In this document: positions 6,552 through 10,254 of the stretch, piece after piece
Position numbering within the stretch: the first letter of the stretch is position 1
Layout: every line of letters starts with the position of its first letter
IMG/VR virus record: IMGVR_UViG_2802429219_000016
DNA: 31,583 nucleotides
From: a virus
Lineage: Duplodnaviria; Heunggongvirae; Uroviricota; Caudoviricetes
Reading direction: 5' to 3' (one strand)
The notes under the pieces: generated by a model
What the model saw: the letters and a program-made list of their open reading frames with translations, nothing else
The model's database searches: none
Told to the model about the DNA's origin: nothing
Position numbers and translations under genes: made by a program

Positions 6552-6864
6552 TGCTGATTTAATGGCTGCAACCTTAATTTCCAGTGGCATGTCAGAACAA
6601 AAGGTAAATGATTTCCTGGATAATGTCGTATACCAGCACTATGAGCAGGCCAGAGAAAATTTAATTTCAGAAAAGCGCACGATGATTGCTGAATCATTAA
6701 GCCCTGCATGGATTATCGAAGAGTTGCGGGGAATCATTGCCAGTCAGGATAAAGTGGCGGCAGTTGCCGCCCTCGATGTGCTACAGCGAATGAGTAAAGA
6801 GTTATTCAACACTGAATTAATTTTTAAATCCGGGGGACATAATGAGCCGCACATCCCTGATTAA
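6529..6864 (+). CDS. Hypothetical early protein (111 aa)
   Basis: ORF with GAGG RBS; no recognised domain. Confidence 0.45.
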   Translation: MKIQMITDADLMAATLISSGMSEQKVNDFLDNVVYQHYEQARENLISEKRTMIAESLSPAWIIEELRGIIASQDKVAAVAALDVLQRMSKELFNTELIFKSGGHNEPHIPD

Positions 6865-7393
6865 ATTAATTCATGTTGCCCGTCGGGAGTTGCAACTCGA
6901 CGATGACACTTACCGAGCTTTTCTGGTGCAGTGCACGGGCAAAACCAGTTGCCGCGAGCTGTCCGTTGCACAACTGGAACAGGTGCTCGATGCCATGAAA
7001 GAGCGCGGTTTTAAAAAGCAGAAAAAACATCCCCGCCGTCGCTTTAAGGGGCATGTCACACCACGCGAGAAGATTTACAAAATCTGGCAGCAGATGTTTC
7101 TTGACGGTTTCGTCTCCGATATCAGCGACGCTGCGCTGGACAAATACGTTGAGCGCCTGACAGCCAGACGTAATGGCGGACAGGGTGTTTCCACGCTGGC
7201 ATGGTGTCACGGGGAATCGTTGCAGATTGTGCTCGAAACGCTCAAACAGTGGCATATGCGCTGCATCCGGGAAGCCTTTGCCCGACATGGCGTGCCTTTA
7301 CCTGTGAGCGAAACCGGGCGGGAGCTGCGCGGCTATGATGCACTGACCAGTGCATATGCCCGCGCACGAAACAGCGGGAGAATTGCTGTATGA
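6842..7393 (+). CDS. gemA: GemA-like (Mu gp16 family) protein (183 aa)
   Basis: Position immediately upstream of and overlapping mor; size and basic composition consistent with Mu GemA/gp16 family (recollection). Confidence 0.65.
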   Translation: MSRTSLIKLIHVARRELQLDDDTYRAFLVQCTGKTSCRELSVAQLEQVLDAMKERGFKKQKKHPRRRFKGHVTPREKIYKIWQQMFLDGFVSDISDAALDKYVERLTARRNGGQGVSTLAWCHGESLQIVLETLKQWHMRCIREAFARHGVPLPVSETGRELRGYDALTSAYARARNSGRIAV

Positions 7394-7839
7394 AACAGAT
7401 GAAAGAGCAGGATTTGTTCGAAGACCTTCGGGACGACAGCGTTCTGGAATATCTTCATGATTACCAGGAAAACACCGCTTATCCGGCGTTACTTTCTGAA
7501 CTGAACGCACTGCTGCGTAAAGAGCTGGCCCGGATTGGAGCAGACCCTGCCCATTCCCTTGAGCTGGTTGTGGCGATTTGTCGCCATATCGGCGGGATGC
7601 AGGTTTATGTTCCGAGGGGGAATATTCTGGAGAATCTTGTCCGGGATATGCGTATCTGGCGTGATTTTAACGGCCATAATATTCCTGAACTGGTTCAGCG
7701 TTACGGGGTGACGTATAAAACCGTCTACAAGGCCATCAAACGGATGCGACGTCTGGAGCGTAATAAATACCAGCCGGATTTGTTTTACCCCTCCCCGAAC
7801 CTGCCTCACCCCGTTCGTCGCCCACCACGACGCCCTTAA
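7390..7839 (+). CDS. mor: Mor/C-family transcription activator (149 aa)
   Basis: DLFEDLRDDSVLEYL...ALLSELN.LLR.ELARIGADPAHSLELVVAICRHIGGMQVYVPRG...RDMRIW.DFNG.N..EL..RYGVTYKTVYKAIKRMRRL closely parallels Mu Mor including the C-terminal HTH. Confidence 0.8.
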   Translation: MKQMKEQDLFEDLRDDSVLEYLHDYQENTAYPALLSELNALLRKELARIGADPAHSLELVVAICRHIGGMQVYVPRGNILENLVRDMRIWRDFNGHNIPELVQRYGVTYKTVYKAIKRMRRLERNKYQPDLFYPSPNLPHPVRRPPRRP

Positions 7840-7844
7840 TCAAT

Positions 7845-7869
7845 GAAGCCGGTAAATCCGGCTTTTTTT
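7845..7869 (+). terminator. Intrinsic terminator-like hairpin plus T7 run downstream of mor
   Basis: GAAGCCGG-TAAAT-CCGGCTTTTTTT: 6-8 bp GC stem, 5-nt loop, seven T. Part of a 40-bp element repeated at 15561-15600. Confidence 0.5.
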
Positions 7870-7924
7870 ATGCCTCCGGCACCATGAAGCAGACCACGTT
7901 TAAATCTGCTTCACAGGTGCTTTT

Positions 7925-8521
7925 ATGGAAAATCAAAAATTCTCCCCGGCCTTTGAACATGCGCTGAATTTTATTCTGCGTCCTGATATCGAAGGCGGCT
8001 ATGTCAATGACCCCACTGACAGCGGCGGCGAAACAAAATACGGCATTTCTGACCGCCGCGACGGTGTGATTGACGGCAAAACCGATGTCAACGGCGACGG
8101 CAAACCGGATACCCGCATTAAGGATTTGACCCGCGAACAGGTTGCGCAGATTTACTGGCGCGATTACTGGCTGCTTGCCGGGTGTGATCAGTGGCCTGAT
8201 GGTGTGGCGCTCTTTGTGTTTGATGCGGCTGTTCAGCATGGCGTGGAGCAAGCCGTCAAGTTTTTACAGGAAGCCGCTGATGTGTCTGCCGATGGCATCA
8301 TCGGCCCGCGTACCCGCAAGGCTGTGAGCCTGTCCACCCCGGACTGGCTGCTGTCCCGCTGCATTGTTCGCCGTTGCCGCTTTTATGCGGGCCTCATCAA
8401 ATCAAAACCCGCTCGTGGCAAATACCTGAACGGCTGGTTTAACCGCATGGAAGAACTGACCGACGCCTGTCTGGAAATTATCGATACCCCTCTGGGCATC
8501 ATGTCCGCCACGCGGGGGTGA
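7925..8521 (+). CDS. Endolysin, GH108-type lysozyme with C-terminal peptidoglycan-binding region (198 aa)
   Basis: EGGYVNDPTDSGGETKYGIS catalytic motif typical of GH108; C-terminal ADGIIGPRTRKAV fits PG-binding domain; no N-terminal TM segment, so apparently not a SAR endolysin. Confidence 0.75.
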   Translation: MENQKFSPAFEHALNFILRPDIEGGYVNDPTDSGGETKYGISDRRDGVIDGKTDVNGDGKPDTRIKDLTREQVAQIYWRDYWLLAGCDQWPDGVALFVFDAAVQHGVEQAVKFLQEAADVSADGIIGPRTRKAVSLSTPDWLLSRCIVRRCRFYAGLIKSKPARGKYLNGWFNRMEELTDACLEIIDTPLGIMSATRG

Positions 8522-8522
8522 T

Positions 8523-8750
8523 ATGGGCAAAGGCTGGGATGCCTCACTGAAAGCCGGGCGGCGTGACCGCCTGCGCCAGGAGGTTCTGCACCGCATGGCC
8601 GGAGGTCCGCCCCCGAAACCGCTGGACTATACCGGCCATGATGGCACACACGCCAGCTACTACATGCGTGGCTGGAACTCCGTGGATACACGGGACATTT
8701 TCTGGCAGTGCCAGAAGTACAAGGAAAAACTCAATGCACAGAATGAATAG
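8523..8750 (+). CDS. Hypothetical protein in lysis module (75 aa)
   Basis: ATG 2 nt after endolysin stop; no recognised domain. Confidence 0.4.
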   Translation: MGKGWDASLKAGRRDRLRQEVLHRMAGGPPPKPLDYTGHDGTHASYYMRGWNSVDTRDIFWQCQKYKEKLNAQNE

Positions 8751-9144
8751 TCTTTTTGTTCGCGTTATTTACTCCCGCTTTATGTTGTGCCAGTGGTCGT
8801 TTCTGGGACTGTCGGCAGTACTTTTTCTGGCGAGCTGTTTTGCCGGATGGCGGGCGTTTGCGGTCATGGTGCTGGCATACGGCGCGACACTCTGCCTGAT
8901 TCACAGTTTCCAGCTGGGCAACGTACCTTATCGCCTGCAGCCCAAAAGGCGTTTCCGGGCCGCCTCCCTTCGAATTGTCGTGTGGTCATGGGTGGTCTGG
9001 GCCGTTGGTTTTTTCATGCTGACATTCGGCATTCTTTATCTGAAGGAGCCTTATCAGCTGGCGTTCTGGCTGGGCGGTATTTTTTGCGCGGCACTTTATA
9101 AACATCAGCGCCGTTTTCATAAGGGGGATTCATGGATCCGTTAA
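8734..9144 (+). CDS. Polytopic membrane protein, holin candidate (136 aa)
   Basis: About four hydrophobic segments; ATG 8734 with AAGGAAAAA RBS preferred over the in-frame upstream start at 8563. Confidence 0.45.
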   Translation: MHRMNSLFVRVIYSRFMLCQWSFLGLSAVLFLASCFAGWRAFAVMVLAYGATLCLIHSFQLGNVPYRLQPKRRFRAASLRIVVWSWVVWAVGFFMLTFGILYLKEPYQLAFWLGGIFCAALYKHQRRFHKGDSWIR

Positions 9145-9740
9145 CCCTTTCAGGCATCGCCTCTGTTCTGCTGAAAGCCGGGCCGGGGCTGATTCGTTCC
9201 GTCGGGCGCTGGTTTGGTGGCAGTACATCTGCCGCCGCTGACTCGGTGGCCGGTATGGTGGAAAGCGTCCGGGAAAGCCTGCCGGTGGCTGAACAGCAAC
9301 GCATTCTGGAACAAAAACTGGTGATGCTGTCACCGGAGCAACTGATGCAGCTGGAAACCCTGAAAGTTCAGCTGCAACAGCTGGAGGTGGAACGGCAGAA
9401 GCTGGTGCTGGCTGACCAGCAGGCCGCACACCACGAACAGCAGGAAACCATCCGCAATGGTGACAACGCCACGGACAGCTATGTGCGCCAGACACGCCCG
9501 CTGCTGGCCCGCCTTTCCTGTTACAGCAGTCTGGCCTATGTGCTGTTGCTCTCCTGCGGCCAGATTGCCGGAGCCATTGCCGGTGCCAGAGGTATTACGC
9601 TGCATATGCCATCACCGGACTGGGATATCACGCTGATGTTGCTTACCCCGGCGCTGGGCTATCTCGGTGTGCGAACCCTTGACGGCTTTGCCCGTTACAG
9701 CAAATCAAGCCGTCACAAAATGTCTGCGGGGCTGAAATGA
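9132..9740 (+). CDS. Membrane protein with N-terminal coiled coil and C-terminal TM segments (202 aa); lysis-associated
   Basis: Gln/Leu-rich heptad-like region (EQQRILEQKLVMLSPEQLMQLETLKVQLQQLEVERQKL) followed by hydrophobic stretches. Confidence 0.45.
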   Translation: MDPLTLSGIASVLLKAGPGLIRSVGRWFGGSTSAAADSVAGMVESVRESLPVAEQQRILEQKLVMLSPEQLMQLETLKVQLQQLEVERQKLVLADQQAAHHEQQETIRNGDNATDSYVRQTRPLLARLSCYSSLAYVLLLSCGQIAGAIAGARGITLHMPSPDWDITLMLLTPALGYLGVRTLDGFARYSKSSRHKMSAGLK

Positions 9741-9964
9741 CCGACGAAATCGATCGCATCAGTGAAGTGGTTTTGAACGAGCGTCAGAGCGTCGTTAAAG
9801 CCTGGCAGACACGGACAAAAGAAACGCCCCACAGCCGGGGCTTCTGCAATGACTGCGGGAACGTTATTCCGGCACAGCGCCTTGCGGCGCTGCCGGATGT
9901 GGTGACCTGTATTGACTGTCAGCAGATGCGGGAACGCAGGAGGAAAACGTGTCCTGGGAAATGA
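9737..9964 (+). CDS. TraR/DksA-family C4 zinc-finger protein (75 aa)
   Basis: C-x2-C-x17-C-x2-C (CNDCGNVIPAQRLAALPDVVTCIDCQ) and size typical of TraR / lambda Orf73 family. Confidence 0.7.
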   Translation: MTDEIDRISEVVLNERQSVVKAWQTRTKETPHSRGFCNDCGNVIPAQRLAALPDVVTCIDCQQMRERRRKTCPGK

Positions 9965-10254
9965 TCAGAGCCAACTGGCCCATTCTGTGGGCATTGCTGA
10001 TGACAGGAATAAACCTGCTTCAGTTGATTCTGGCAAAGACCTACGTCAAACGCGAAGAGTTTGATTTGCTGCGTTCCCGCGTGTCGGTGATGGAAAGCCA
10101 GGTACATCAGCTACCTGATCGTGATGAGTTCCACCGCCTGCAGCTGGATATCAGCAACCTGCGGGGAGAAATCAAAGAGCTGGGGCCATCCATCCGCCAG
10201 GTATCCCGCATCAGCGATTTGTTATTAGAGAACGAGTTAAAGGAAAAAAATTAA
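9949..10254 (+). CDS. Small N-terminally anchored membrane protein with coiled coil (101 aa); i-spanin-like architecture
   Basis: N-terminal TM (WPILWALLMTGINLLQLIL) then helical region; GTG start 5-6 nt after AGGAGG. Spanin role is inference from architecture only. Confidence 0.4.
   Translation: MSWEMIRANWPILWALLMTGINLLQLILAKTYVKREEFDLLRSRVSVMESQVHQLPDRDEFHRLQLDISNLRGEIKELGPSIRQVSRISDLLLENELKEKN

Follow-up and report, generated by a model that had tools for sequence, protein, structure and literature searches.

A predicted calcium-binding hairpin behind the catalytic loop of a GH108 endolysin in a Mu-like prophage

The virus record IMGVR_UViG_2802429219_000016 (Caudoviricetes), a stretch of 31,583 nucleotides analysed here as a whole and referred to as the window, encodes at positions 7925..8521 (+) an endolysin of glycoside hydrolase family 108 (GH108) in which an acidic, glycine-rich insert resembling known calcium-binding loops follows directly behind the catalytic loop. 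The locus raises the question of whether this insert binds Ca2+, to which class of loop it belongs, and what a bound metal would do for an enzyme that has to be made in the cytoplasm and to act in the cell envelope. The reading favoured here, which we rate slightly better than an even chance, is a structural, stabilising Ca2+ site in the insert, predicted from the motif class of the loop, its conservation and the recurrence of a second type of calcium loop at the same site in other members of the family.

The enzyme and its acidic insert

The open reading frame (ORF) starts with ATG and encodes 198 residues. A preliminary description of the window had recognised a GH108 endolysin with the EGGY motif, and this assignment stands: Pfam Glyco_hydro_108 (PF05838) matches residues 22-106 with 84.8 bits against a cutoff of 21.2 (E 6e-24), with EGGY at residues 23-26, a C-terminal PG_binding_3 peptidoglycan-binding domain (PF09374) covers residues 110-175 (8252..8449, +; 58.2 bits against a cutoff of 24.6, 1e-15), and PHROG 315, annotated as endolysin, matches at 1e-53. 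Against the NCBIfam equivalog model NF040573 (holin-associated N-acetylmuramidase) the lysozyme scores 76.3 bits, below the cutoff of 240, and by this measure it is related to that group and not an equivalog member of it. Judged by its sequence, the protein is a GH108 N-acetylmuramidase with predicted muramidase activity. The catalytic loop (7991..8035, +) comprises E23-G-G-Y26 (7991-8002), D32 (8018-8020) and T37 (8033-8035), with a triad spacing of E-x8-D-x4-T; the HMMER alignment pairs E23, D32 and T37 with Glu17, Asp26 and Thr31 of SagA, which are T4-lysozyme-like catalytic residues (PMC8334348). A 128-sequence family alignment shows no variation at D32, G34, T37 and G40 and at least 90% conservation of E23. 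The AlphaFold2 model built from 128 aligned sequences reaches a predicted local distance difference test (pLDDT) score of 92.8 and a predicted template-modelling (pTM) score of 0.88, and Foldseek matches it to Brucella SagA 7DNP (E 8.9e-9, template-modelling score 0.73-0.82). All significant neighbours in the Protein Data Bank (PDB; E <= 0.001) are GH108/PG_binding_3 proteins (7DNP, NMB1012 2IKB/2IS5, TtsA 6V40, Sen1395 6V3Z and 2NR7), and as modelled the lysozyme has the two-lobe lysozyme-like GH108 fold.

The segment to which the preliminary description had drawn attention, DRRDGVIDGKTDVNGDGKPDTRIKD, corresponds to residues 43-67 (nucleotides 8051-8125), and the acidic, Gly-rich insert itself spans D43-D62 (DRRDGVIDGKTDVNGDGKPD; 8051..8110, +). 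Within it, Asp occupies every fourth residue, at positions 46, 50, 54, 58 and 62. When the lysozyme was shuffled 200,000 times with its composition preserved, the pattern Dx[DN]xDGxxD appeared in 0.16% of the shuffles and five Asp at the exact 4-residue spacing in 0.09%; a chance origin of the motif is effectively excluded. The insert directly follows the catalytic loop and lies in the segment that forms helix alpha2 in SagA, where the HMMER alignment places S42-D54 of the query over SagA residues 36-48 (alpha2) and leaves V55-K60 as extra residues. In SagA the catalytic residues are carried on a long flexible alpha1-alpha2 loop lining the substrate cleft, and Ile35 and Thr39 at the start of alpha2 touch N-acetylglucosamine (GlcNAc) (PMC8334348). 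The insert exceeds the shortest GH108 loops by about 14 residues and that of SagA by 6, and it is absent from all solved GH108 structures. It reads DGVI-DGKT-DVNG-DGKP-D, and the nonanucleotide GACGGCAAA (Asp-Gly-Lys) occurs in it twice, at 8072-8080 and 8096-8104, 24 nucleotides apart; this layout is compatible with birth by duplication of a DG-containing unit and proves nothing of the kind.

The place of the insert in the family was examined in a sample drawn from 16,788 GH108 hits among 1.84 billion representative proteins, the best of which were aligned and supplemented with further relatives to give 256 sequences, and the loop class was scored between 'T.YGIS' and 'P..D-I..LT'. The counts have to be read in the knowledge that this sample is biased towards the loop type of the query, because the loop itself adds to the search score. 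A medium loop of about 12 residues, typically of the SagA-like TQRTYDAWR form, is found in 122 of the 256 sequences, and a short loop of 4 residues (GISKRSY-P) in 64. The query type, SD.xDG.xDG.xD[LVI][DN]xDG.xD[VIT], accounts for 49, a half loop restricted to SDxxDGxxDG for 5, and a 12-residue EF-hand-like loop for 13, with 3 further near-matches. Only some relatives thus carry the query-type loop, and on these sequences the insert is lineage-restricted. An alignment against GH108 members had been proposed as the way to decide whether the loop is an insertion, and the answer is that the insert is real, being missing from the solved structures and from most of the sampled relatives. Neighbour-joining and nearest-neighbour analysis of the 256 sequences with the loop masked gave no large pure clade and flat between-class identities of 0.33-0.40, and the trees did not separate one origin of the insert from several; nearest neighbours were nonetheless enriched for a shared loop type (83/147).

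Query-type inserts occur in Pluralibacter, Raoultella, Klebsiella, Serratia, Kluyvera, Rheinheimera, Alishewanella, Alteromonadaceae, Marinomonas, Aeromonas, metagenome-assembled genomes of Bacteroidetes and the Yersinia phage vB_YpM_5. The lysozyme gene is also present at 90-92% nucleotide identity and in the same gene order in 46 of 5,426 complete Escherichia coli genomes, where it is annotated 'glycoside hydrolase family 108 protein'. A common E. coli allele (L006 RIVM_C037166 501-1097; cluster P0001, 520 members) has EGVY in place of EGGY together with N56S. The G25V change falls at a position that is 88-97% Gly in the family and N56S affects position 3 of the loop, and this allele, to go by the substitutions, may be a weakened or altered enzyme. 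The half-loop enzymes, which include that of Pantoea phage LIMEzero (L002 1459-1986) as well as P0171, P0199, P0200 and P0287, keep SDxxDGxxDG, and in place of Dx[DN]xDGxxD they have either nothing or a stretch rich in Gly and Pro; such enzymes may represent intermediates or products of decay.

Conservation, motif class and the predicted calcium site

The insert is maintained with a stringency otherwise seen at the catalytic residues. A recognisable loop is present in each of the 118 full-length close homologues listed (58-91% identical), and 96 of these have the strict pattern. An alignment of 40 relatives with the query loop type, which are 33-70% identical to the query and have a mean column identity of 28%, contains 14 invariant columns, five of them in the catalytic loop (E23, D32, G34, T37, G40), three further along the protein (D100, W171, R174) and six in the insert (D43, D46, G47, D50, D54, D62), an invariance that is partly circular for D43, D46, G47, D50 and D54, because these belonged to the pattern by which the 40 sequences had been selected, and that leaves G51, N/D56, D58, G59 and D62 as positions only loosely constrained by the selection. 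In the same alignment G51, D58 and G59 are at least 90% conserved, and among relatives with the query loop type the Dx[DN]xDG positions are at least 93% conserved and D62 95-100%. The calcium proposal would have lost its ground had the segment been general to GH108 enzymes and devoid of acidic ligands; it is restricted instead, and its acidic positions are conserved like the catalytic ones. Compared with the 72%-identical gene of vB_YpM_5, codons 42-67 show 8 synonymous and 0 nonsynonymous differences, and residues 23-150 overall show 39 and 30; on this codon comparison purifying selection on the insert is strong. In two degenerate members, P0184 and P0217, N56 (replaced by Y/H, position 3) and D62 (replaced by K/M, position 9) are missing together, the joint loss being what would be expected if the site is lost as a unit. 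No convincing candidate emerged from a search for co-variation between the loop and the rest of the protein, as a distal ligand might show.

As to its class, the loop had been described as of EF-hand/dockerin type, and it is this part of the preliminary description that does not hold. The core of the predicted Ca2+ loop, D54-V-N56-G-D58-G59-K60-P-D62 (8084..8110, +), combines the linear motif Dx[DN]xDG (D54-V-N56-G-D58-G59) with an acidic residue, D62, two residues after G59. In Dx[DN]xDG motifs, positions 1, 3 and 5 provide side-chain ligands, position 6 is Gly and position 7 contributes a backbone oxygen; a further acidic ligand is possible two or more residues past the motif, and that spacing is found in the strand-loop-strand 'calcium blades' of integrin type (Rigden et al., PMC3123361). 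The motif binds Ca2+ in at least 16 unrelated contexts, and homologues often differ in carrying it, for which an easy origin from repeated DG units has been proposed (PMC3123361). In the AlphaFold2 model, strands at residues 52-53 and 63-64 flank the loop and a helical turn occupies residues 43-46 (pLDDT 92-94). The only Pfam match of the loop outside GH108 is FG-GAP (PF01839) on DVNGDGKPDT, which at E 0.048 and 14 bits lies below the cutoff of 22.1. FG-GAP is also the only foreign family to recur, in 12 of the 40 loop segments, with a best E of 0.0014 that is likewise sub-threshold. A profile of the 40 loops run against all PDB sequences matched only integrin alpha-6 and alpha-IIb, at E values of 0.35-3 that are not significant but specific, the matches falling on the stretches DVNGDGRHD, DLDRDGYND and DIDDNGYPD and fitting the calcium-blade pattern; phmmer with the bare 29-residue loop gave no hits among PDB sequences. 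With its sub-threshold score and its helical, lysozyme-like host fold, the loop does not belong to the FG-GAP/integrin calcium blades proper.

That the loop might instead be an EF-hand/dockerin module, forming either a helix-loop-helix Ca2+ site or a docking element of the cohesin-binding type, is very improbable: the EF-hand pattern is indeed matched at this site in other members of the family, with weak Dockerin_1 and EF-hand hits, yet the query fails the pattern because position 8 is Pro (P61) and position 12 is Ile (I65), as tested with PROSITE PS00018 applied as a regular expression, its loop returns neither an EF-hand nor a Dockerin_1 (PF00404) Pfam hit at E <= 10, strands and not helices flank it in the model, and as a single loop it lacks the second repeat that a dockerin needs. 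Many dockerin and EF-hand loops do begin with DVNGDG. On sequence and model, the loop is best described as a Dx[DN]xDGxxD hairpin of calcium-blade-like type, set in a fold new to this motif, and not as an EF-hand or dockerin loop.

Genuine EF-hand-type loops are nevertheless found elsewhere in the family. Among 245 more distant GH108 proteins, 13 match the full EF-hand pattern, where shuffles give an expectation of 0.16 and a maximum of 2, and all 13 matches lie at the homologous site between 'GIS' and the 'LT..Q' helix, where these members also produce the weak Pfam hits mentioned above. The subgroup includes P0282 (DVDKDGDIDADDI), P0249 (DLNHDGTIDAKDI), P0141, P0311, P0353 and others, as well as L007 2252-2818; the contig that carries P0282 offers no informative gene context. 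P0282 is modelled as helix(44-47)-loop(48-56)-helix(57-61) with a pLDDT of 96 and canonical EF-hand geometry. These proteins share with the query the family, the insertion point and the Asp-rich Dx[DN]xDG character of the loop; they differ in having the 12-residue pattern with an acidic position 12 and a helix-loop-helix model, whereas the query has the 9-residue hairpin type preceded by an extra SDxxDGxxDG element. That a single hotspot behind the catalytic loop carries Ca2+-type loops of two different kinds argues that metal binding, more than packing, is under selection there.

Family, fold, insertion, conservation and motif class thus give the favoured reading its footing, and from there it runs as a prediction about the metal, its ligands and their consequence. 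Consistent with the missing signal or signal-anchor-release (SAR) segment, the endolysin would collect in the cytoplasm as a soluble protein and reach the wall most likely through one or more holin-like membrane proteins encoded downstream. The hairpin would bind one Ca2+ through the side chains of D54, N56 and D58, the backbone oxygen of K60 and the side chain of D62, in the fashion of integrin/FG-GAP loops and with pentagonal-bipyramidal coordination as the predicted geometry; D43, D46 and D50, in the first half of the insert, may contribute an additional ligand or form a second site. Bound Ca2+ would rigidify the small N-terminal 'flap' lobe, which holds the mobile catalytic loop and part of the GlcNAc subsite, and so would stabilise the enzyme in the Ca2+-rich cell envelope and perhaps activate it; the role of the metal is probably structural and possibly activating.

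Several points weigh against a calcium site. AlphaFold2 confidence carries no information on metals, every likeness to calcium-binding families, FG-GAP and integrin alike, stays below threshold, and not every motif of this kind is metal-competent (PMC3123361). The syntenic Mu-like phages Shewanella MuM16-2 and Vibrio 1.028.O have the short 'KRSY' loop, devoid of the motif, and the insert is therefore dispensable for this type of cassette; in LIMEzero and a few others the first half, SDxxDGxxDG, is all that is present. The enzyme also has to fold in a cytoplasm low in Ca2+, and the partial circularity of the invariance noted above applies here as well. Most of these points would suit a metal-free acidic hairpin that packs on the flap lobe, shapes the substrate groove or meets a positively charged partner such as peptidoglycan amines or a lysis protein, and the conservation and selection data, which show constraint and not its cause, are compatible with it. 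This alternative, which would reduce the loop to an ordinary lineage-specific surface insertion, is rated as unlikely. Conservation falls exactly on positions 1, 3, 5, 6 and 9 of the Ca2+ motif, which serve as ligands or form the turn, the return of the other canonical Ca2+ motif at the same GH108 site is hard to explain by packing alone, and the 75-aa protein encoded next to the lysozyme, rejected as a loop-specific partner because it also stands beside loop-less enzymes, does not provide the partner required.

Two stronger claims about calcium extend beyond a stabilising site. The first, that GH108 lysozymes have repeatedly gained Ca2+-binding Dx[DN]xDG loops at one hotspot, as a hairpin here and as an EF-hand elsewhere, and have thereby become Ca2+-gated, appears doubtful. 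The second, a true Ca2+ switch that would keep the enzyme inactive at sub-micromolar cytoplasmic Ca2+ and turn it on after release as a safety layer beyond the holin, is more doubtful again. The insert does sit directly after the mobile catalytic loop and replaces the SagA segment that touches GlcNAc, the phage T5 endolysin EndoT5 sets a precedent, its active site opening once Ca2+ has fixed a mobile loop, and intracellular Ca2+ in bacteria is held in the nanomolar range (PMC5615198). However, until the holin acts an endolysin in the cytoplasm cannot reach peptidoglycan, which makes a pure on/off switch seem superfluous; the lysis cassettes of close relatives do without the loop, and comparable sites such as that of Slt35 are considered structural. 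If gating were true, it would amount to a previously unrecognised layer of control in holin-dependent endolysins, and chelators would switch such enzymes off.

The structural Ca2+ site favoured here would itself have practical consequences. Should Ca2+ binding by the loop be real, GH108 endolysins of a widespread group, found in prophages of Enterobacterales, Aeromonas, Alteromonadales, Marinomonas and Bacteroidetes, would be metal-dependent. Ethylenediaminetetraacetic acid (EDTA) is a standard outer-membrane permeabiliser in the testing and formulation of endolysins against Gram-negative bacteria, and with a Ca2+-dependent enzyme it would inactivate or destabilise the very protein under test and produce misleading negatives. 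A calcium site here would also extend the Dx[DN]xDG motif, which evolves convergently, to a new fold, and GH108 would become a natural series for the origin of such sites, a single position being occupied in different members by a hairpin loop, an EF-hand loop, half a loop or none. Muralytic enzymes with Ca2+ loops are already well known, as is the convergence of Dx[DN]xDG motifs; no open-access paper was found that links GH108 or Glyco_hydro_108 with calcium or EF-hands, and the survey of Dx[DN]xDG motifs mentions neither lysozymes nor phages (PMC3123361).

The N-terminus and the lysis cassette

The preliminary description had further remarked that the enzyme, unlike the Mu lysozyme, has no N-terminal SAR or transmembrane segment, and it was right on both sides of the comparison. 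Kyte-Doolittle means over 19 residues peak at 0.24 within the first 40 residues, so that no N-terminal membrane segment is apparent, and at 1.03 in the protein as a whole; with the catalytic Glu already at residue 23, the lysozyme does not qualify as a SAR endolysin. Mu gp22, by comparison, is a SAR endolysin released by the DUF2730 protein gp25 (Chamblee et al., PMC9239132). The missing SAR domain is real and not new, because Mu-like phages with cytoplasmic endolysins have already been described, and DUF2730 proteins are present in them too (PMC9239132). Nearly all sampled GH108 proteins, whatever their loop class, are devoid of an N-terminal membrane segment, which leaves loop type nothing to correlate with.

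The window is a Mu-like prophage in which the lysozyme belongs to the gene order GemA, Mor/C activator, hairpin, lysozyme, 75-aa ORF, multi-transmembrane protein, 202-aa protein, DksA-type protein, DUF2730 protein and small terminase. GemA is encoded at 6842-7393, and a Mor/C-family late transcription activator gene (7390..7839, +; Pfam Mor 3.6e-30) lies directly upstream of the lysozyme. The activator is 32% identical to a 140-aa Mor/C-family protein found just upstream of the SAR lysozyme in the Yersinia Muvirus vB_YpM_5, the position of Mu C, and no homologue of the Mu gp22 SAR lysozyme was found within the window; the GH108 gene therefore occupies the place of Mu lys. Between the activator and lysozyme genes there is a terminator-like hairpin (7845-7865) with a T-run (7845..7873, +). 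No sigma-70-like promoter was found in 7700-8700, and its absence from the interval before the lysozyme gene (7874-7924) suggests an activator-dependent late promoter, as in Mu Plys. In vB_YpM_5, a true Muvirus, a GH108 gene with the same loop and its partner ORF are located between mor and C (L001 3995-5923), and a Mu gp22-like SAR lysozyme (MAGIPKKLKA...) follows downstream, giving this phage two muralytic enzymes.

The 75-aa partner ORF (8523..8750, +) starts 2 nucleotides past the lysozyme stop codon and matches the N-terminal part of PHROG 2121 at 2.9e-39. It has the same position beside GH108 in E. coli STEC719, vB_YpM_5, Shewanella phage MuM16-2 and Vibrio phage 1.028.O. The ORF covers only the N-terminal 75 positions of PHROG 2121, and the C-terminal part matches the 202-aa protein, a split which, to judge from the matches, suggests that fused versions exist elsewhere. 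That 202-aa membrane protein (9132..9740, +; PHROG 1544 and 2121) is a candidate holin, its match to Pfam GTA_holin_3TM (7.8e-4, 20.4 bits) lying below the cutoff of 24.8. A multi-transmembrane protein (about 8731-9144, +; PHROG 12596) is encoded between the two, and it looks like an inserted gene because its neighbours are adjacent in the Shewanella and Vibrio relatives. A DksA-type zinc-finger protein is encoded between the 202-aa and DUF2730 genes, and a Mu gp27-like small terminase follows the latter; no spanin genes were recognised between the lysozyme and terminase genes. The DUF2730 protein (9949..10254, +; Pfam PF10805, 1.7e-30), a homologue of the Mu gp25 'releasin' family, accompanies an endolysin that has no SAR domain to release, and is an example of the unexplained pairing noted for Mu-like phages (PMC9239132).

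Comparison with known systems

Among the solved GH108 proteins (SagA 7DNP, NMB1012 2IKB, TtsA 6V40 and Sen1395 6V3Z, in the family of N4 gp61), the two domains, the EGGY motif, the E/D/T triad and the fold are shared with the window's enzyme. The site of the insert is taken up by a 12-residue helical segment in SagA and by only about 4 residues in many other relatives, none of the solved structures carrying the acidic insert. Coliphage N4 gp61 is reported as a SAR endolysin (PMC12642591), whereas the enzyme described here has no membrane segment. The integrin/FG-GAP calcium blades resemble the loop in their linear pattern (DVNGDGRHD in alpha-IIb), in the spacing of the acidic ligand and in the strand-loop-strand arrangement; they sit in a beta-propeller, in contrast to the lysozyme-like helical lobe that holds the loop here, and the likeness is presumably convergent.

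Other muralytic enzymes offer parallels in the use of calcium. EndoT5 of phage T5, an M15_C L-Ala-D-Glu peptidase, is likewise an endolysin for a Gram-negative host, with a mobile Ca2+ loop near the active site that sets the active conformation; it is activated as Ca2+ fixes this loop and opens the active site, and it has orthologues that are not regulated in this way (PMC10487532). It has an unrelated fold and is a Zn peptidase, and its Ca2+ dependence has been shown by experiment whereas that of the GH108 enzyme is predicted. Slt35 of E. coli has an EF-hand-like site regarded as structural, and Tse3 of Pseudomonas aeruginosa has three Ca2+ sites in its groove (PMC3792639). Both are periplasmic enzymes that cleave glycan strands and bear surface Ca2+ loops, and they differ from the query in their SLT and goose-type folds and in the lengths and positions of the loops. 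Ca2+ sites are also described in CHAP endolysins (PMC13461873); this study of metals in a Proteus endolysin concerns M15 and CHAP enzymes and not GH108.

Mu itself provides the closest comparison for the cassette. Mu gp22, like the window's lysozyme, is the product of the first late gene after a C-type activator, with a gene of the DUF2730 'releasin' family downstream. It is, however, SAR-anchored, with an E-x8-D-x5-T triad, and Mu has no holin (PMC9239132), whereas the window combines a soluble GH108 enzyme with a holin-like membrane protein.

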